Both the position numbers and the translations under genes were made by a program. From Nanobdellota archaeon (GTDB lineage: Archaea > Nanobdellota > Nanobdellia > Pacearchaeales > GW2011-AR1): a stretch of DNA of 64,000 nucleotides. The notes below the pieces were generated by a model. The model made no database searches, was not told where the DNA came from, and saw only the letters and a list, made by a program, of their open reading frames with translations. The stretch is taken from NCBI GenBank assembly GCA_038045825.1, contig JBBSXJ010000003.1:75437-139436 (forward strand). Reading direction: 5' to 3'. The stretch's first letter is position 1; every line of letters begins with the position of its first letter. Below are positions 33,917 through 50,016 of this stretch, in pieces.

Positions 33917-35653
33917 ATGCGTATTCTTGGGTTAAATATAGGTCATGGATCTAGTGTAGCTTTACTTGAGAATGGTCAAATAATTAAAGCTGTTTCTGAA
34001 GAGAGGTTCTCAAGAATAAAAAATCACTCTGGTCTCCCCGTCCAATCTATAAAGTGGATTTTGGAAAGCGAAAAAATAAAAATAAAAGATATTGATTTGA
34101 TAGTTTTAGATGATCATTACTCTTTAAATAATAACCCTTATTTTAGCCAAAATTTTATTGAATCTTATAAAAATAAGAGTTTAAGTAAAAAAATAATTTC
34201 CAACATAGCTTACAATTTTCCAAAATTTTATAGTAAGCTGAGCACGATAAAAAATAATTTATCTAAAAGAGGAAGAGAAATGAAAGAGTTGAGAAATGGA
34301 GTTGCTAATATGCTCAACTACCCTTTAAATAAAATAATATTATTGGACCATCATCGGGCTCATGCTTTTTCTACAGTATCTAATTTAGGAGAAAAAGATT
34401 GGTTAGTTCTAACTTTAGATGGGGAAGGTTCTGGTTTTTGTGCTAGTGTAAATATTTTTAAAAATGGGCAAATTAAAACAATTTCAAAGACTCCTAAATC
34501 TGCTTCTCTAGGTTATTTTTATGCTTTGGCTACAATGCATATGGGCCTTAAGCCTTTAGAACATGAATTCAAAGTGATGGGTCTTGCACCATATGCTAAA
34601 AAAGAACATATTAATAATAATTACCATCTAGTAGATAACTTGTTTAAGATAGATGATAATCTTTCATTTAATTCGAAGTTTAGTATGCAGTTTGCAGATA
34701 TTTTCTTTAAGAAAGAAATGCAAGGAATAAGATTTGATACTTTTGCTGGCATAGTTCAAAAGCTTACCGAGGACAAGATAATAGAGTGGGTAAAAACTGC
34801 TATTAAAAGAACAGGCATAAAGAGAATTGCGCTTTCAGGAGGAGTTTTCATGAATGTTAAAGTTAATCAAAAGATAGCCGAATTACCAGAGGTGAAGGAG
34901 ATATTCATCACTCCAAGTTGCGGGGATGAATCAAATGCTATGGGGTCTTGTTGGTATGGATATTATGTATATTGCAATAAAAATAATTTAGAATTTTCTC
35001 CTAAAAGACTAAATGGATTATATCTTGGACCAGAATATGAAGAAGAATACATTAAAACAATGATAAAAAGGGATAAATTAGAAGATAAATATATTATAAC
35101 TAAGCCAAAGGATATTGAAAAGAAGATTGCTCAGCTACTTGCTAATGGACAAATTGTTGCTAGGCTTGCTGGAAAGAGTGAATGGGGAGCTAGGGCACTC
35201 GGAAACAGATCAATTTTAGCAAACCCCTCTGATCCAGGCACAATTAGAATTCTTAATGAAACAATAAAAGATAGAGATTTCTGGATGCCCTTTACCCCAA
35301 GCTTAATAGAGGAATATTCTGAAAAATATATATCTAACCAAAAAAAAATTGATGCTCCTTATATGGTAATTACTTTTGACTCTTTAAAGGATGCAAAAGC
35401 TGATCTTCCTGCTGCAATACACCCTTATGATCTGACAGTTAGACCACAAATAGTATATAAATTGATGAATCCCTCATATCATAAAATAATATCTGAATTC
35501 GCAAAACTTACTGGAAAGGGAGCTATACTCAATACTTCTTTCAACCTTCATGGACAACCTAATGTCCTTACTCCAGAAGATGCTGTATATACAGTGGACA
35601 ATTCTTCACTAAAATTTGTTATAATTAATGATTATTTATTTAAAAAAATTTAG
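33917..35653 (+). CDS. carbamoyltransferase (NodU/CmcH family), copy 1
   Basis: MRILGLNIGHGSSVALLENGQIIKAVSEERFSRIKNH N-terminus and C-terminal GAILNTSFNLHGQP. Confidence 0.85.
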   Translation: MRILGLNIGHGSSVALLENGQIIKAVSEERFSRIKNHSGLPVQSIKWILESEKIKIKDIDLIVLDDHYSLNNNPYFSQNFIESYKNKSLSKKIISNIAYNFPKFYSKLSTIKNNLSKRGREMKELRNGVANMLNYPLNKIILLDHHRAHAFSTVSNLGEKDWLVLTLDGEGSGFCASVNIFKNGQIKTISKTPKSASLGYFYALATMHMGLKPLEHEFKVMGLAPYAKKEHINNNYHLVDNLFKIDDNLSFNSKFSMQFADIFFKKEMQGIRFDTFAGIVQKLTEDKIIEWVKTAIKRTGIKRIALSGGVFMNVKVNQKIAELPEVKEIFITPSCGDESNAMGSCWYGYYVYCNKNNLEFSPKRLNGLYLGPEYEEEYIKTMIKRDKLEDKYIITKPKDIEKKIAQLLANGQIVARLAGKSEWGARALGNRSILANPSDPGTIRILNETIKDRDFWMPFTPSLIEEYSEKYISNQKKIDAPYMVITFDSLKDAKADLPAAIHPYDLTVRPQIVYKLMNPSYHKIISEFAKLTGKGAILNTSFNLHGQPNVLTPEDAVYTVDNSSLKFVIINDYLFKKI

Positions 35654-36027
35654 GCTGACTTTTTGATATTGTTTATGCTATCCACAATAGCCCTTAGATT
35701 CTTATCCCTAACATCATTCTCTTTTTCTTCAGTTTTAATATCCCACTCTGCTACAATTGAATCTTCAAGACCTATAAATGCGTGAGGAACTAATTTTGGT
35801 AATTTTCCCGCATATCCTTTGTTACAAATCTGTTCTTTATCTCCGAGAATTAATTTTATTTTACCATTTATAACTACAAGCCATTCATCTTCTGTATGGA
35901 AACAACCTCCACGAGCAAAACCCTCTTTTAACTCAAGAAAAGTAAATTCTCTATTTTCTTGTAAAAGCCCCTTAACTGCTTTTATATATCCTCTTTCATC
36001 GTTGTGTATATGAACTATTTCTACCAT
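35650..36027 (-). CDS. cupin-fold sugar isomerase/epimerase-like protein (WxcM/FdtA- or RmlC-like)
   Basis: 125 aa; NDERGYI and ARGGCFHTEDEWLVVINGKIKL resemble D-x-RG / RG-x-H-x-H cupin sugar enzymes. Confidence 0.55.
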   Translation of the reverse strand: MVEIVHIHNDERGYIKAVKGLLQENREFTFLELKEGFARGGCFHTEDEWLVVINGKIKLILGDKEQICNKGYAGKLPKLVPHAFIGLEDSIVAEWDIKTEEKENDVRDKNLRAIVDSINNIKKSA

Positions 36028-36075
36028 AAAATTTTATTATTTTTAGGTAATTAAACTTATCTATTATTTAGTGTG

Positions 36076-37209
36076 CTAAATTTTTAATTGGTCTTTTCCT
36101 ATTTCCATAAACATAAAACCATTGGGATTTTCTGGTCTTTTCTTAAAGCCGAAAGAGGAATAAAATTCAACAGCTACTTTGCTAGGGCATGTTCCTAATA
36201 GATATCCTTTTTTGTTTTGAATATTCTTTAGAATTATTTGCATTAATTTCCTACCTACACCCTTACCTTGAAATTCTGGTAAAACTATTGTGTCTTGGAT
36301 ATAACCATACATTCCTTGATCTCCTGACATTCTTACCATTCCTATTATTTTATTTCCAGAATATGCACAAACACAATATGGAGCTACGTCAAGAGATTTT
36401 TGAGCGCTTTCATTTGAAATCCCCCTTTCAGCGAGATTCCAGTCAACAGAGTCTCTTAATTGATTGAATTCAACTAATGTTGGTTTCTTTTCAACATACC
36501 TTATATCCATACTATCGGACGAATTACTTCGTTTTTTAAATTTATCGTTTTCTTTAGAAACAAGATTAGCTAGATATATAGCAGTTGAATATATTTCTTC
36601 TTTAGATGCGCCTCTTGACAGGTCACTTATGTGATATCCTGTGCCTAACAAAATAGGGCCTATATGTTCATAATCCCCTAGCCTTTGAACAAGTTTGTAA
36701 GAGATATTTGCAGAATTCAAATCTGGGAATATAAATGAATTATGTTTAATTGAGTTTTTTATCCCTTTTTTCAGAGCTATTTCTGGAAGAAGAGCTGCAT
36801 CTACCTGCATGCCTTTTTCATCTGTCTTAAATGAAAGGTTTGTAATTTTCAATTCAAAGATATTTCCTACTTCTTTTTGTAAAAGATCATTCAGTTCTTT
36901 CTTTTGTTCTTCAGATAATGAAATATTAACTGCTGTGTCTGCAAAAAAATACATAGAGTCATTTTTTCTTAAAACGCTATAAGAATACACTCTGTTCTTT
37001 GGTTTTATTAATTGAAATATTATCTTAAGATAATCTGATGTCGAAATATCATGGCCCCCAACAAGGCAATCTATTTCTTTTGATATCAAAGCTTTTAATG
37101 CAGATTCGACAGAATCGTAAATTATCAGTTTGAAAATATTTTCTTTTTCTATTCTTTCTTTAACATACATTATATCGCTGTTATTATCAGAGAAACCTAT
37201 TTTTATCAT
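36076..37209 (-). CDS. fusion protein: phosphate acetyl/butyryltransferase (PTA_PTB)-like domain + GNAT N-acetyltransferase
   Basis: Residues ~1-225 contain QVDAALLPEIALKKG...FIFPDLNSANISYKLVQRL...IGPILLG...ISDLSRGAS (Pta signature). Residues ~240-377 contain GNAT motif A QGKGVGRKLM. Confidence 0.7.
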   Translation of the reverse strand: MIKIGFSDNNSDIMYVKERIEKENIFKLIIYDSVESALKALISKEIDCLVGGHDISTSDYLKIIFQLIKPKNRVYSYSVLRKNDSMYFFADTAVNISLSEEQKKELNDLLQKEVGNIFELKITNLSFKTDEKGMQVDAALLPEIALKKGIKNSIKHNSFIFPDLNSANISYKLVQRLGDYEHIGPILLGTGYHISDLSRGASKEEIYSTAIYLANLVSKENDKFKKRSNSSDSMDIRYVEKKPTLVEFNQLRDSVDWNLAERGISNESAQKSLDVAPYCVCAYSGNKIIGMVRMSGDQGMYGYIQDTIVLPEFQGKGVGRKLMQIILKNIQNKKGYLLGTCPSKVAVEFYSSFGFKKRPENPNGFMFMEIGKDQLKI

Positions 37210-38309
37210 TTGTAGAATTCCTTTATTCTTTCACAAATTCCAATAATATCTTTTTCACTTAAATGTGGGCCATTTGGAAGCCAAAGACAATTATCTGCAA
37301 TATAAGATGCATTTGGAAAATCTTTGTCAGAACCTAAATGGCTGTAAGGAGGATTTCTATGTACTGCAGGCCAACAATCTCTTGCAAAAATATTATTTGT
37401 TTTTAGATAATCCACTAAAGCTTGTCTATTTTCTATATGTACATCAATCCAAAGAGGTATCTCTCCTTTTGATATATCTATCTTTGCAAAGTGTATCTGC
37501 TTTACGCTTGACAACTCTCTTTCGTATATATTTCTCTGCTCTACCAAAAGCTTTTTGCGAGAATCTATCTTTTTTAGTTGGCTAAGAACTAGCGCTGCTG
37601 CTAAGTCGCTAAATTTTAAGTTGTACCCTTCTTTTTCGTGTATGGACTCTTTGTTGCTGAATCTTCCAAAATCTCTTATTCTTCTCATAATTTCATGGTA
37701 TTTGTCATCATCTGTTGAAACAAATCCACCTTGGCCACAAGTTATTATCTTATTTGACTGAAGAGAATAACAACCAACCTCGCCAAATGTGCCTAAGAAT
37801 TTATCCCCTTCTTTTGATCCTAGAGCCCCAGCAGCATCTTCTATAATAGAAATATTCTTTTCAGATGCAATTTTCTTTATTTCATTATAATCTGGGGATC
37901 TTCCCAATATATCTACTACAATTATTGCTGTTGTCTTATTTGTTATTTTATTTTTTAGATCTTTTATACTAATAAGACCCGTTTCTTTATCTACATCTGC
38001 TAAAATTACTTTGCCTCCAGCCCATCCAACTGCGGTTGCTGAAGCGATCATAGTCATGTCAGGAACAATTACTTCAAAATCTTGAATGTTTTTTATTATT
38101 GAATCTGCTTTTATTGCCATGAAAAGAGAAGCAGTGCAATTAGCAGTCATTGTGACATGTTTAACACCAAGATATTTTTGTAATTCTTCTTCAAGTAGCT
38201 TTGTTTTTGGACCTTCATTTACATAATTATTTCTTAATACTTCTGTTACAGAATCTATATCTTCTTGGTCAAATCTTGGTTCGTTCCAATTAATTCGTTG
38301 GTTGTTCAT
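37206..38309 (-). CDS. DegT/DnrJ/EryC1/StrS-family sugar aminotransferase (perosamine-synthase-like)
   Basis: 367 aa with family-typical length and blocks; overlaps gmd by 20 nt and the Pta-GNAT gene by 4 nt. Confidence 0.85.
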   Translation of the reverse strand: MNNQRINWNEPRFDQEDIDSVTEVLRNNYVNEGPKTKLLEEELQKYLGVKHVTMTANCTASLFMAIKADSIIKNIQDFEVIVPDMTMIASATAVGWAGGKVILADVDKETGLISIKDLKNKITNKTTAIIVVDILGRSPDYNEIKKIASEKNISIIEDAAGALGSKEGDKFLGTFGEVGCYSLQSNKIITCGQGGFVSTDDDKYHEIMRRIRDFGRFSNKESIHEKEGYNLKFSDLAAALVLSQLKKIDSRKKLLVEQRNIYERELSSVKQIHFAKIDISKGEIPLWIDVHIENRQALVDYLKTNNIFARDCWPAVHRNPPYSHLGSDKDFPNASYIADNCLWLPNGPHLSEKDIIGICERIKEFYK

Positions 38310-39354
38310 CTTTCTGAGCGCTTAGTATCTTCATTCTCTCTCTAGCTTGCTCTAGTGTCAAACCTTTTTCATGAAGATCATGCTCAAGCATCATCTTCGC
38401 TAACTCTTTGAATTTTACTTTAGGTTCCCATTTTAGAATATTCTTTGCTTTTGTTGAATCTCCAAGTAATGCTGGTACTTCAGCAGGTCTCAAGTAACGA
38501 TCACTTGTTCTTACAAACTTCTTGTAATCTGTGCCCAACAAATTAAAGCATTCTTCTAGGAATTCTCTTACCGTATGAGTTTCTTCTGTAGCAATTACAA
38601 AATCATCAGGTTTATCGTGTTGTAAAATTCTCCACATTGCTTCCACATATTCTTTGGAGAATCCCCAGTCTCTTTTAGCATCCAAGTTTCCCAAAACTAT
38701 TTCATTCTTTTCTGCATTTACAATTTTAACTATATCTCCAGTTATCTTTTTAGTTACAAAATTTAGACCCCTTCTAGGAGATTCATGATTGAAAAGTATA
38801 CCGTTTGCTGCAAATAATTTGTAAGCATCTCTGTAAAGCCTTGTTAAGTGGAAAGCTCCTACTTTTGCAATACCATAAGGACTTTGAGGCTTAAAATGAG
38901 TTGTTTCATTTTGTGGGGGTGGAGTTGCTCCGAACATCTCCGAAGATGAGGCCTGATAATATTTAACCGGGTAATTCATTTGACGAATTGCTTCTAGTAA
39001 TCTTAGGGGGCCAAGTGTGTTAATATTAATTGTAGATTCTGCATTTTCAAAACTGATTCCTACATGGCTCTGCGCTCCCAAATTATATATTTCATCAGGT
39101 CTAAATTTTTCCAAAACATTTCTTAAACTTTGAGAATCTGTTAAATCTGCATAAACAACTGTGAAAGGATTATTTGGATCGTGGTCATCTGAATATTTGC
39201 TAAGTAAATGATCTATTCTTTTTGTATTTGGAGAACTTGCTCTTCTAACAATCCCCCTTACTAAATAACCTTTTTCAAGTAGAAGTTCAGCGAGATAAGA
39301 ACCGTCCTGTCCTCCAATGCCTGTAATTAAAGCAACCTTTTTTCCATCTTGCAT
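38290..39354 (-). CDS. gmd: GDP-mannose 4,6-dehydratase
   Basis: ALITGIGGQDGSYLAELLLEKGY, SPYGIAKV, NHESPRRG blocks. Confidence 0.9.
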   Translation of the reverse strand: MQDGKKVALITGIGGQDGSYLAELLLEKGYLVRGIVRRASSPNTKRIDHLLSKYSDDHDPNNPFTVVYADLTDSQSLRNVLEKFRPDEIYNLGAQSHVGISFENAESTININTLGPLRLLEAIRQMNYPVKYYQASSSEMFGATPPPQNETTHFKPQSPYGIAKVGAFHLTRLYRDAYKLFAANGILFNHESPRRGLNFVTKKITGDIVKIVNAEKNEIVLGNLDAKRDWGFSKEYVEAMWRILQHDKPDDFVIATEETHTVREFLEECFNLLGTDYKKFVRTSDRYLRPAEVPALLGDSTKAKNILKWEPKVKFKELAKMMLEHDLHEKGLTLEQARERMKILSAQKDEQPTN

Positions 39355-39391: not shown

Positions 39392-40579
39392 TTATTGAAG
39401 AGCGTTTTCCACTATCTTAATTATAGCATCATTTCTTCTTCTTAAATTATATTTACCATCTTTTGATATCATACCTTTTGCAAATTTACCCATTTTGTCT
39501 CTTGAATTAGAACTCTTAATTAACATTTCAGTCTTATTCACATATTCCTCAAGTAAATCTTTATCAATATTCTTTGAATAAAGCCTCATCCATCTTAAAT
39601 TCAGATTTCTTAAATAATCTTTAGTTTCAAGAGGGTTCCCTAAAATGCTGTTTGCGTCCGTAACCATTCCACTTTTTCCATCAATTACCATTTCAGGGAT
39701 CATCCAAAAATTGAAAACTGATGCAGGTATAGCATAATTCATACAGTCAAGAAGGAGATTTATTCCTGGAACTGGTTCTATCAGGAGATCAGAGTCTAAA
39801 AAGAGGTCTCTCATTTCATTGTTGGAAAGAAATTCTTCCAAGAATTTTATCCCTTTTATATTACCGTATTTTATTTTTACCCAGCTTGGTACGTGTGCCC
39901 TTACTGATAGGTTTATATTATTATATTTCTCAGACAGAATTTTATAAGATTCTAAAGCATAGATTCCCCCCTTAAGTTCAAAGTCATAAACATTGTTAAC
40001 CGATGACACAAAGAGCATATTAACCCTGTTATTTTTATTCTTTCTTTCTATTTTTTCCTGCTCTGTTGCAAAAGGAAGAACATGTATCTTTTTAGAAAAT
40101 CCTGAACAATCCAATGTTTTTGTTAGTGACATCTTAGCAATATCATTCCAACAGATTATTGCAATACATCTTTTAGATGAGAATTCACGCTCTATTTCTT
40201 TTACATTTAATCTATTGTAGTCATAACCGCCTAGGGCAGTTATATTCTCTATATCTATGATATATTTATGTGGTTCTGGAGGTATTAGATTTGAAGCATA
40301 AACCAAATCGCAACTGGGTACCTCTTCTTTAGATGGTATTACTAGATTTTTTAGTTCTTTTAATGATACCATAGGCCTCATAAGTTTATAGTATAAATAT
40401 CTAACCCATGGGTTTCTTGAAAGCTTAGAAAATTTATTTGTAGAGTTTACCTGTTTAGGATTATATATAACTTGATATTTTTCAGACAATAATTTTATTG
40501 TTGGATTATATACGCTATGCCACTTTTCACTAGGGTATAAGAGAATTTTCTTTTTCACTGATTTTGTAGAGATTTTCAT
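39392..40579 (-). CDS. putative GT-B glycosyltransferase
   Basis: The C-terminal EPVPG...LLDCMNYAIPA...IPEMVIDGKSGMV resembles the GT4 E-x7-E region; otherwise unrecognised. Confidence 0.45.
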   Translation of the reverse strand: MKISTKSVKKKILLYPSEKWHSVYNPTIKLLSEKYQVIYNPKQVNSTNKFSKLSRNPWVRYLYYKLMRPMVSLKELKNLVIPSKEEVPSCDLVYASNLIPPEPHKYIIDIENITALGGYDYNRLNVKEIEREFSSKRCIAIICWNDIAKMSLTKTLDCSGFSKKIHVLPFATEQEKIERKNKNNRVNMLFVSSVNNVYDFELKGGIYALESYKILSEKYNNINLSVRAHVPSWVKIKYGNIKGIKFLEEFLSNNEMRDLFLDSDLLIEPVPGINLLLDCMNYAIPASVFNFWMIPEMVIDGKSGMVTDANSILGNPLETKDYLRNLNLRWMRLYSKNIDKDLLEEYVNKTEMLIKSSNSRDKMGKFAKGMISKDGKYNLRRRNDAIIKIVENALQ

Positions 40580-41152: not shown

Positions 41153-42910
41153 ATGAAAATTCTTGGATTAAGTTGTTTTTATCATGACTCGTCTGCGACA
41201 TTATTAATAGATGGAAAAATAGTTGCTGCTGCCCAAGAAGAAAGATTTACAAGGAAGAAGCATGATTCTTCTTTTCCAATTAATTCAATAAATTATTGTC
41301 TGAATAGCCAGAATCTAAAAATAGATGATATAGATTTTATTGGTTTTTATGAAAAGCCACTTATTAAATTTGAACGCGGACTATCACAACACATACAGAT
41401 GTTTCCGCATAGTTATAAAACATTTATCGCCTCATTACCTTCTTGGTTTACTGAAAAACTTAGAGTAACAAAAACAATAAAGAATAAACTGAAATACAAG
41501 AAACCAGTTCTTTTTGTTGATCATCATCTAACTCACGCTGCGTCTTTTTTATTAAGCCCTTTTAAAAGAGCAGCTATTCTAACTGTTGATGGTGTTGGTG
41601 AATGGACTACTACTGCTTATGGAATAGGAGATAAAAATAATATAAATTTAATAAAAGAAATAAAATTTCCGCATTCCTTGGGCCTTCTTTATTCAACAAT
41701 AACTGCCTACTTGGGGTTTTCTGTTAATAACTCTGAATATAAGGTAATGGGTTTGAGTCCATATGGAAATATGGATAAAGATACAAACCCTTATTATAAT
41801 AAAATCAAGCAGATTATAGATGTAAAAAAAGACGGAAGCTACAGACTGAATATGTCTTATTTTAGATATCATTGTAAGGACAGGATGCCGTCCAGAAAAT
41901 TGTGTGTACTTCTTGGCGGGCCTATAAGAAGAAAAGAATCTTCTATAGATCAAAGACACAAAGACATTGCAGCAGCTGTGCAGCTTATCGTCGAGGAAAC
42001 AATTTTTACTATATTAAATCATATACATAAAGAAACAAAGTGCGACTCGTTAGTCATATCTGGTGGAGTTGCTCTAAATAGTGTTTGCAATGGAAAAATA
42101 TTGAAAAATACGGGATTCAAGAATATCTGGGCTCAACCAGATCCAGGAGATGGTGGAACAAGCGCAGGAGTTGCTTCTTATATTTACAACACTATTCTTG
42201 GAAAGAAAAGGAACTATATTTTAAATAATGCGTACCTTGGTCCATCTTTTAGTGAAGAAAATATAAGAGAGTTTCTTAAAGAGAATAATATTTCTTATAG
42301 TGAATTTACAAATAAAGAAGAATTGATAAAAAAAACTGCTTCTCTTATATATCAAAATAAAGTGATTGGGTGGTTCCAAGAAGGCATGGAATGGGGTCCA
42401 CGTGGATTAGGTGCAAGAAGCATTTTATCAAATGCCTGCAACCCTGAAATGAAGGAGATTTTGAATACAAAAGTAAAACATCGCGAGAAATTTAGGCCGT
42501 TTGCTCCAGTAGTGTGTTATGATGATGCTCAAAAATACTTTGAATGTGATAAGCCAATACCTGACCCAACAGATTTTATGCTAATGGTATATCCAATAAA
42601 AAAGAAATGGAGAAAAAAGATACCTGCTGTAGCACATGTTGATGGAAGTGGAAGATTGCAAACCATTAAGAAAGACCAGAACCCACTTTACTATGGAGTC
42701 ATTAAAGAGTTTGGAAAACTTTCAGGAATACCTATTTTAATAAACACATCTTTTAATATAAGAGGAGAGCCAATTGTATGCACTCCAAAAGATGCTTATA
42801 GATGTATGATGGGGACTGGAATTGACTATCTTATCATAGATAGATTTTTGATTAACCGTGATGAGAACGCCAAGGATATCTGGGACAGTGAAAAATATGC
42901 AAATGACTAA
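41153..42910 (+). CDS. carbamoyltransferase (NodU/CmcH family), copy 2
   Basis: MKILGLSCFYHDSSATLLIDGKIVAAAQEERFTRKKHD, GPRGLGARSIL, HVDGSGRLQT, ILINTSFNIRGEPIV. Confidence 0.9.
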   Translation: MKILGLSCFYHDSSATLLIDGKIVAAAQEERFTRKKHDSSFPINSINYCLNSQNLKIDDIDFIGFYEKPLIKFERGLSQHIQMFPHSYKTFIASLPSWFTEKLRVTKTIKNKLKYKKPVLFVDHHLTHAASFLLSPFKRAAILTVDGVGEWTTTAYGIGDKNNINLIKEIKFPHSLGLLYSTITAYLGFSVNNSEYKVMGLSPYGNMDKDTNPYYNKIKQIIDVKKDGSYRLNMSYFRYHCKDRMPSRKLCVLLGGPIRRKESSIDQRHKDIAAAVQLIVEETIFTILNHIHKETKCDSLVISGGVALNSVCNGKILKNTGFKNIWAQPDPGDGGTSAGVASYIYNTILGKKRNYILNNAYLGPSFSEENIREFLKENNISYSEFTNKEELIKKTASLIYQNKVIGWFQEGMEWGPRGLGARSILSNACNPEMKEILNTKVKHREKFRPFAPVVCYDDAQKYFECDKPIPDPTDFMLMVYPIKKKWRKKIPAVAHVDGSGRLQTIKKDQNPLYYGVIKEFGKLSGIPILINTSFNIRGEPIVCTPKDAYRCMMGTGIDYLIIDRFLINRDENAKDIWDSEKYAND

Positions 42911-49509: not shown

Positions 49510-50016
49510 CTAGGAATTTTTTATCTTTTCAACGATTCTTGATGTAGAGATATTATCAAACTCTTTAGGACATGTGCGTTTAAGAACTTCAACTTGAACA
49601 TTATATTTTTTTGCTATCTCTTTTCTTAGATCTATATCAAATGCATCATCATTCATTGCCCAAATATCTGGTTTTAATGATTCAAATACTGGAAAAAGCA
49701 CGGAAAGTATGCTTCCATTATATTTACCATCTTTGGGGGGAATATCCAGCATCGTATAATCTACATACTTTAGAGAATCAACAGTCTTTAATCTTACATT
49801 CTCATTTAATATAGGTCTATTTTCTCCCTTATATTTTTTAGTAGTCTTATCATCACCAATAGAAACGAAAACAATATCTCCTAATTTCTTACAATCTTCA
49901 AAGAATAATATATGACCTGCATGCATCAAGTCAAATGTACCTGAGCAAAATACTATTTTCTCATTTTTATGCTTTTCTCTTATTTCTGGAAGTTTGGATA
50001 GATCTATTATAACCAT
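49510..50016 (-). CDS. cytidylyl/adenylyltransferase (TagD / RfaE-domain-II family)
   Basis: CSGTFDLMHAGHILFF (H-x-G-H nucleotidyltransferase motif), 168 aa. Confidence 0.7.
   Translation of the reverse strand: MVIIDLSKLPEIREKHKNEKIVFCSGTFDLMHAGHILFFEDCKKLGDIVFVSIGDDKTTKKYKGENRPILNENVRLKTVDSLKYVDYTMLDIPPKDGKYNGSILSVLFPVFESLKPDIWAMNDDAFDIDLRKEIAKKYNVQVEVLKRTCPKEFDNISTSRIVEKIKNS

Follow-up and report, generated by a model that had tools for sequence, protein, structure and literature searches.

What is a phosphotransacetylase (Pta) domain doing in an operon for the biosynthesis of a nucleotide sugar? The question is raised by a stretch of 64,000 nucleotides (nt) from a groundwater archaeon of the Nanobdellota (GenBank assembly GCA_038045825.1, contig JBBSXJ010000003.1, positions 75,437 to 139,436; hereinafter, the window). 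On the minus strand of the window, a gene at 36076-37209 encodes a protein of 377 amino acids (aa) in which an N-terminal domain of the PTA_PTB family is joined to a C-terminal acetyltransferase domain of the GNAT superfamily (Acetyltransf_1/7/10); the gene follows those for a dehydratase and an aminotransferase of nucleotide-sugar metabolism, the second of which it overlaps. This fusion is real and conserved, though very rare. Its N-terminal half appears from sequence comparison to represent a new, reduced subfamily of class I Pta descent, here denoted short Pta (sPta), which is distinct from ordinary Pta. The reading that we favor, and to which we assign a probability of roughly 0.45, is that sPta is a dedicated module for the supply of acetyl-coenzyme A (acetyl-CoA) and the recycling of CoA in amino-sugar N-acetylation.

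A rare Pta-GNAT fusion

The PTA_PTB match of the fusion protein (110.5 bits, with a cut-off of 24) consists of two stretches within the first ~215 residues, the better of which aligns aa 134-213 with profile positions 237-318, and three GNAT models score above their cut-offs at residues ~264-358. The sPta domain, supported by this match and by an AlphaFold2 (AF2) model and the invariant residues described below, is aa 1-215 (36565-37209). The GNAT domain spans aa 241-377 (36076-36489, including the stop codon), and between the two lies a variable, low-complexity linker, aa 216-240 (36490-36564), as seen in its identity and predicted local distance difference test (pLDDT) values. The motifs quoted in the original prediction, which was made from the sequence alone, were all recovered, namely FIFPDLNSANISYKLVQRL (aa 159-177), IGPILLG (aa 183-189) and DLSRGAS (aa 196-202) in the Pta half, and QGKGVGRKLM (aa 314-323) in the GNAT half. 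The coordinates and domain matches of the three consecutive genes were confirmed as well, with overlaps of 20 nt between the genes for GDP-mannose 4,6-dehydratase (Gmd) and the DegT-family aminotransferase (38290-38309), and of 4 nt between the latter and the fusion gene (37206-37209).

Of 5.8 billion protein clusters (90% identity), only three contain both domains: the window protein and two metagenome-derived orthologs of 379 aa (P0006, 72% identity) and 373 aa (P0007, 71% identity, on a 674-kb contig). The loci of both orthologs retain the gene overlaps and the order of a glycosyltransferase-like (GT-like) gene followed by Gmd, the DegT aminotransferase and the fusion. Because two further orthologs are fused, with identical gene order and overlaps, the fusion is not an assembly artifact. 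No description of a Pta-GNAT fusion, or of a Pta in a nucleotide-sugar pathway, was found in the literature, in agreement with the initial impression that such a protein is unfamiliar in sugar pathways; the possibility, raised at the same time, that the architecture would prove common and already characterized did not materialize, as the architecture is not common.

The linker shows 28-52% identity among the three fusions, with proportions of nonsynonymous differences (pN) of 0.22-0.46, and is free to vary. In the AF2 model of the whole fusion (pLDDT 84.8, predicted template modeling score (pTM) 0.64), linker residues 230-233 have a pLDDT below 50, and the inter-domain geometry is untrustworthy, with the GNAT part derived from three sequences only. 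The sPta and GNAT halves were each aligned on their own.

The short Pta family

We use the name sPta for a small family of short Ptas of ~224-230 aa (P0008-P0018, 48-70% identity), to be compared with the ~320-335 aa of class I Ptas. Relative to ordinary Ptas, three segments are deleted, namely 14-34 aa at the N-terminus, 48-63 aa after residue 25 and 27-28 aa after residue 132; in terms of the class I structure, sPta (~225 aa) lacks the N-terminal helix, the segment of the secondary CoA site (site 2) and a piece of domain II. This amounts to the removal of about one third of the canonical Pta, and the first strand-helix is retained, so that the original view of a single truncation of ~100 N-terminal residues gives way to three separate deletions. 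The 48-63-aa segment carries Arg87 of site 2, and the Arg133 position is occupied by Lys or Arg.

The active site was mapped with the Pta of M. thermophila as the reference, using published residue lists. In that enzyme, CoA is bound in site 1 by Ser128, Asn279, Tyr282, Lys283 and Gln286 together with Gln244 and Lys257 of the partner subunit; Asp307, Ser309, Arg310 and Asp316 are catalytic (PMC9706017, PMC6461089). Their sPta equivalents (T57, N168, Y171, K172, Q175, Q135, K148, D196, S198, R199 and E205) are invariant in 14 of the 14 sPta sequences. Two of these positions are substituted, Ser128 by Thr, the common residue in ordinary Ptas, and Asp316 by Glu, which is found at the same position in six of the 33 ordinary Ptas. 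The catalytic Ser and Arg are hence present and Asp316 is replaced by the conservative Glu, contrary to the loss of these residues that was envisaged as a way in which the initial interpretation might fail. Site 2 is a lower-affinity CoA site, mutation of which has only moderate effects on activity (PMC6461089). The same 48-63-aa segment is missing from the ordinary Ptas of this order that are 275-285 aa long, four of which (loci L025, L027, L028 and L030 of genomes G044, G046, G011 and G003, respectively) adjoin ack or lie within ~2 kb of it, so that the absence of the segment is consistent with ordinary Pta function. With the site-1 residues invariant and only site 2 lost, as in these ack-linked Ptas, the suggestion that the domain may serve for binding and not be a complete enzyme is not upheld. 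The 275-285-aa Ptas themselves resemble an intermediate step in Pta reduction.

The AF2 model of sPta is compact (pLDDT 96.2, pTM 0.91) and, in a Foldseek search, superposes across both domains on structures of Ptas and of the PTA domain of the hybrid malic enzyme MaeB, with template modeling (TM) scores of 0.77-0.86. For the class I Ptas of M. thermophila (1qzt/2af4), Bacillus subtilis (1td9) and Streptococcus pyogenes (1r5j), with which sPta shares the site-1 CoA-binding and catalytic residues, the TM scores are 0.76-0.81; the C-terminal 80 residues of sPta match solved Ptas with E-values of 1e-15 to 1e-17. Purifying selection acts on the sPta half of the three intact fusions, with pN of 0.12-0.19 against proportions of synonymous differences (pS) of 0.62-0.75 (dN/dS ~0.06-0.11).

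In the maximum-likelihood tree, sPta is monophyletic (support 100/100) and separated from the ordinary Ptas by a long branch (0.87 + 0.9 substitutions per site), and the three fusions form one clade (97/89) inside sPta, which points to a single fusion event. We file sPta as a reduced subfamily because it stays below the curated thresholds and lacks the full-length architecture and the Ack (acetate kinase) partnership of ordinary Ptas. Its occurrence is limited to a few uncultured archaea; its most distant short relative (P0172) lies on a 2.1-kb contig that is uninformative for context. A Pta-like fold is also found in archaea in MtxX (methanogen marker protein 4), of unknown function (PMC12978539). 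It and the fusion do not match at the level of sequence, and no methanogen-marker model is among the NCBIfam matches of the fusion. MtxX is a short protein as well, with a different taxonomic distribution and gene context.

Free-standing sPta next to N-acetyltransferases

Outside the three fusions, sPta is a separate protein, and its genomic context connects it with the same kind of reaction by an independent route. All six contexts that we examined are amino-sugar cassettes. In five of the six, sPta is encoded directly after a Gfo/Idh/MocA (WlbA-like) dehydrogenase, and the stop codon often overlaps the start codon that follows; in three of these five it directly precedes a hexapeptide-repeat acetyltransferase of the left-handed beta-helix (LbH) fold and a DegT aminotransferase. 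The remaining context (P0009) has its triad of DegT aminotransferase, dehydrogenase and LbH enzyme 2-4 kb from sPta. The dehydrogenase of these cassettes matches 3q2i/3q2k (E 1e-90), which are titled in the PDB only as dehydrogenase/oxidoreductase and which we take to be WlbA structures, and the acetyltransferase matches WlbB (3mqg) and FdtD-type enzymes. These matches identify the loci as WlbA/WlbB/WlbC-type cassettes for a 3-acetamido sugar, with sPta ahead of the acetyltransferase. One such cassette with sPta is present in another species of the same genus.

Thus, through fusion to GNAT and adjacency to LbH enzymes, sPta accompanies N-acetyltransferases of two unrelated folds, and the element common to both pathways is the use of acetyl-CoA after transamination by a DegT enzyme. 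The link between the Pta half and N-acetylation that was originally drawn from the fusion has in this way gained independent support. In three of the contexts (L009:7688-8575, P0016 and P0014), a gene of ~294 aa resembling polysaccharide deacetylases is convergent to sPta and immediately follows it; one of the three has no Pfam match. A GNAT encoded near sPta in L011 was considered as a possible member of the same family as the fusion domain and was found to belong to a different GNAT family.

Uncoupling of sPta from acetate kinase

The genome that contains the window (G000) comprises 837 kb and is 89.6% complete, and all gene absences reported for it are subject to this completeness. The fusion is its sole PTA_PTB gene. 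No match to acetate kinase (PF00871) was obtained in G000 or in the second sPta genome (G466), whereas in the same order acetate kinase is encoded in five of the five tested genomes with an ordinary Pta, mostly in the adjacent position. Unlike class I Pta, sPta has no genomic acetate kinase, sits in nucleotide-sugar cassettes, carries Glu at the Asp316 position and, in the window, is fused to GNAT; it is not a fermentative Pta and is uncoupled from acetate kinase. The AMP-forming type of acetyl-CoA synthetase (Acs) and pyruvate:ferredoxin oxidoreductase (PFOR) were not detected in G000 either.

Two markers of CoA biosynthesis, DFP (phosphopantothenoylcysteine synthetase/decarboxylase, PPCS/PPCDC) and the archaeal dephospho-CoA kinase DUF359, gave no match in any of 17 genomes of the genus (G000 and 16 others), with controls that do match. 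The genus is therefore probably unable to make CoA, which would be scavenged, and under such conditions local recycling of CoA would be useful.

The GNAT domain and its predicted substrate

The two enzymes encoded ahead of the fusion indicate what the GNAT domain might act upon. Gmd (38290-39354, minus strand) is recognized by TIGR01472 (435.2 bits, with an equivalog cut-off of 415) and PF16363 (E 8.7e-121). The next gene (37206-38309, minus strand) encodes a pyridoxal phosphate (PLP)-dependent aminotransferase of the DegT family (PF01041, DegT_DnrJ_EryC1, E 1.5e-83), probably a GDP-4-keto-6-deoxymannose 4-aminotransferase similar to perosamine synthase. The perosamine synthetases 3bn1 and 3dr4/3dr7 are the second to fourth best among its solved relatives (E ~1e-37); other sugar aminotransferases score similarly, and every NCBIfam match is under its cut-off. 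Judged by family-level similarity, from which the identity of the sugar is taken, the two enzymes are consistent with the GDP-perosamine logic of the original prediction.

In the GNAT domain, the acetyl-CoA motif A (Q/R-x-x-G-x-G/A) is represented by QGKGVG (aa 314-319), of which G319 is invariant and the Gln nearly so in an alignment of 49 sequences. The domains of the three fusions are 83-88% identical to one another. The free-standing relatives of this domain are 135-155 aa long and 49-80% identical to it, and several are encoded after Gmd and the DegT aminotransferase or elsewhere in nucleotide-sugar clusters. The closest solved structures, 2atr and 1y7r, are uncharacterized small GNATs. 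The only other fused form of the family (P0317, 412 aa, on an 8-kb contig of the European Nucleotide Archive) carries an N-terminal Formyl_trans_N domain similar to sugar N-formyltransferases and so combines two alternative N-acylation chemistries within one protein. Given the neighbors of this GNAT family in Gmd-DegT and other nucleotide-sugar clusters and the fusion to a formyltransferase, the GNAT domain is best read as a putative amino-sugar N-acyltransferase. A protein of 180/206 aa that precedes another free-standing relative (P0127) was evaluated as a candidate sPta and proved not to be sPta-like; between the DegT aminotransferase and the GNAT in the same context lies a 166-aa gene similar to that of a 168-aa cytidylyl/adenylyltransferase-like protein in the window (49510-50016, minus strand), the best match of which is domain II of RfaE (heptose-1-phosphate adenylyltransferase).

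In the step predicted for the fusion, a nucleotide-linked amino sugar, the product of a dehydratase or dehydrogenase together with a DegT aminotransferase, is N-acetylated with acetyl-CoA, and this step is the one performed by PerB/WbqR (4ea8) and WlbB/WbpD (3mqg/3mqh). These are LbH enzymes, as had been noted for the known perosamine N-acetyltransferase PerB, and none is known with a Pta, whereas the fusion enzyme is a GNAT without a Hexapep match; WlbB-like enzymes are, however, the direct neighbors of free-standing sPta.

Possible functions of sPta

The presence of a mini-Pta beside sugar acetyltransferases in genomes without acetate kinase suggests that it was probably recruited for the supply of acetyl-CoA to glycan synthesis. 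In the proposed mechanism, the GNAT domain would N-acetylate the amino sugar produced by Gmd and the DegT aminotransferase, most likely GDP-4-amino-4,6-dideoxymannose (GDP-perosamine). The sPta domain, a minimized phosphotransacetylase that is predicted from its complete catalytic site to be competent, would reconvert the CoA released by the acetyltransferase to acetyl-CoA beside the GNAT domain, perhaps with some hand-off between the two domains and with an acyl phosphate, presumably acetyl phosphate, as the donor. A small pool of scavenged CoA could then sustain glycan N-acetylation, and free CoA would be removed at the acetyltransferase. We propose an equal role for the free-standing sPta encoded immediately upstream of LbH N-acetyltransferases in the WlbA/WlbB/WlbC-type cassettes. 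Only tentatively can this be extended to an evolutionary scenario in which, in CoA-auxotrophic Pacearchaeota (DPANN archaea) that lack Ack, a minimized Pta moved from fermentation into nucleotide-sugar pathways, either fused to GNAT or placed beside LbH enzymes, such that N-acetylation would run on acetyl phosphate with catalytic amounts of CoA.

Several observations weigh against the supply and recycling role. No source of acetyl phosphate was identified in the 89.6% complete G000, where searches for Ack, the phosphoketolase N-domain and a TPP_enzyme_N-type pyruvate oxidase were all negative, and both subunits of ADP-forming acetyl-CoA synthetase are encoded in this genome, so that acetyl-CoA can already be made. 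The GNAT family is mostly unfused, with 46 free-standing clusters against three fused ones. In a close relative (L016:5020-5684, also L017), the 660 bp between the DegT and GNAT genes contain a frameshifted remnant of sPta with several indels of lengths not divisible by three, whereas the GNAT, 80% identical to that of the fusion, is intact and has its own ATG; the decay was seen in two sequencing runs. Such decay beside an intact GNAT implies that the sPta half is accessory and not essential. Furthermore, sPta is rare: a profile search of 1.84 billion representative sequences yielded only nine at E<1e-30, most of them ordinary-length Ptas, and sPta was found in one of the 401 sampled genomes of the class, in one of the 151 of the order and in two of the 17 genomes of the genus (as the window fusion in the first and as a free-standing gene in the second). 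Any advantage that it confers should therefore be a niche one. Finally, the sPta half falls far short of the curated Pta equivalogs, with 107.7 bits against 311.2 for TIGR00651 and 123.3 against 310 for NF007233.

These difficulties invite other explanations. Domains that bind without catalyzing have precedents in the PTA domain of MaeB and in the dead acyl-CoA-synthetase-like domain of the Pat/PatZ acetyltransferases, and the sPta half might likewise be a noncatalytic CoA- or acetyl-CoA-binding module that regulates, oligomerizes or scaffolds its partner N-acetyltransferase. Pat/PatZ (YfiQ), the type I protein acetyltransferases, resemble the present protein in that a GNAT is fused to a domain from an acetyl-CoA-metabolizing enzyme; however, the partner domain is related to NDP-forming acyl-CoA synthetases and not to Pta, the substrate of Pat is a protein lysine, and the GNAT of the fusion, unlike Pat, belongs to a family of small (~137 aa) proteins of nucleotide-sugar clusters. 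The PTA domain of MaeB, likewise a Pta fold fused to another enzyme, binds acetyl-CoA and serves as its sensor (PMC7902834). Its structures (6zn9, 6zng and 9krv) give the best superposition on the sPta model (TM 0.84-0.86), at least as good as that of true Ptas, and the loss of a third of the canonical Pta, the failure to find either Ack or an acetyl-phosphate source and the retention of GNAT after the loss of sPta in the relative are all in line with a binding module. Nevertheless, we consider it unlikely. The critical catalytic residues are reported to be lost from the MaeB domain, whereas Asp196, Ser198, Arg199 and Glu205, which serve the chemistry of phosphate and thiol and not the binding of CoA, are invariant across 14 sPta sequences that are only 48-70% identical. 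The missing site-2 segment is equally absent from the 275-285-aa Ptas, and for a protein that is mostly separate and encoded beside an unrelated LbH enzyme, an allosteric interface common to two folds would be less economical than a shared metabolite.

If sPta is instead an active transacylase, it could catalyze a non-classical reaction, either with a different acyl phosphate or acyl-CoA (propionyl or butyryl, for example) or with carbamoyl phosphate, in which case the sugar would receive a non-acetyl group, or in the direction from acetyl-CoA to acetyl phosphate, to serve some consumer of the latter. The PTA_PTB superfamily does include butyryl and branched-chain transacylases, and the long branch of sPta, the loss of two more segments than in the ack-linked Ptas of the same order and the lack of a detected acetyl-phosphate producer would all be accommodated, as would the carbamoyltransferases of the NodU/CmcH type that flank the operon and the one that lies near a free-standing sPta in L006. 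We regard this as improbable given that the residues of the site-1 pocket are those of acetyl-specific Ptas, that the similarity to butyryltransferases is much weaker (7vg9, E 0.0046, compared with 1e-16 to 1e-24 for Ptas) and that the carbamoyltransferase neighborhood is not conserved at the other fusion loci; carbamoyl-CoA chemistry has, to our knowledge, no precedent. Very improbable, in our estimate, is a neutral or decaying accident, in which a free-standing sPta became joined to a downstream GNAT in one lineage, has no role in sugar acetylation and is being lost. The existence of only three fused clusters in a single clade, the frameshifted remnant ahead of an intact GNAT, the presence of sPta in so few genomes of the genus and the faster evolution of the sPta half (65-66% identity, compared with 83-86% for the GNAT half) could all be cited in its favor. 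Such an accident is difficult to reconcile with purifying selection on, and retention of all catalytic residues in, the three intact fusions, and the repeated placement of free-standing sPta in N-acetylation cassettes in a second sPta clade would hardly arise by chance.

Genomic surroundings of the operon

The fusion gene is the fourth of five minus-strand genes in series, encoding the GT-like protein, Gmd, the DegT aminotransferase, the fusion and a cupin-like open reading frame (ORF). The first four constitute the conserved module. The GT-like protein (39392-40579, 395 aa) has no Pfam match in its window copy and is 42% identical (E 3e-102) to the product of the same-position gene of L003, which itself shows weak matches to Glycos_transf_1. 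The cupin gene noted originally is only partly borne out: an ORF of 125 aa (35650-36027) is indeed present after a gap of 48 nt 3' of the fusion gene, but its Cupin_2 score is below the cut-off (22.6 against 27.2 bits) and the gene is not conserved, being absent at that position in L003, L004 and L016; the orthologous loci have a different, convergent gene of 135 aa. The cupin-like ORF is thus outside the conserved module. Its candidacy as a sugar ketoisomerase/epimerase was dismissed, as there is no FdtA/RmlC-type Pfam match, no informative solved relative and no conservation of the gene.

Two genes upstream of the module in orthologous loci, though not in the window, there is a split, unusually short transketolase-like pair (Transketolase_N, 249 aa, and Transket_pyr, ~160 aa; L003:2809-4040, L004:2808-4036 and L016:586-1065). 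The thiamine diphosphate enzymes of the transketolase superfamily include phosphoketolase, a producer of acetyl phosphate.

The rest of the window is a large glycosylation island that encodes an AglB/STT3 oligosaccharyltransferase, a flippase, many glycosyltransferases, methyltransferases and two carbamoyltransferases. The latter, of the NodU/CmcH type, are the ones that flank the operon (33917-35653 and 41153-42910, both on the plus strand). A third, accompanied by a DUF5989 mini-gene, is located just upstream of a free-standing sPta cassette (L006:3486-5246). The occurrence of carbamoyltransferases near sPta loci may be a coincidental co-residence in glycan islands. An Rfam scan of the window gave zero matches, and a scan for sigma-70 promoters and terminators, a model unsuited to an archaeon, gave counts equal to the shuffled expectation.

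Implications

With the fusion, a GNAT becomes a candidate for N-acetylation of the perosamine type, which has hitherto been assigned to LbH enzymes. Of the natural Pta scaffolds in which the active site is preserved, sPta would be the smallest (~215 residues), and it might be of use in enzyme engineering and in the recycling of acetyl-CoA for cell-free acetylation reactions. Were sPta to prove inactive, a Pta fold would have been turned into an accessory for acetyl-CoA binding a second time, independently of MaeB. The fusion also raises the question of how such symbiotic archaea obtain acetyl phosphate. If sPta is active, it would be, as far as could be found, the first Pta with a dedicated role in anabolic acetylation. 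Pta chemistry, normally a part of acetate fermentation, would then be recruitable as local regeneration of acetyl-CoA for glycan biosynthesis, in organisms whose genomes are tiny and in which CoA synthesis is not detectable and acetate kinase is missing.

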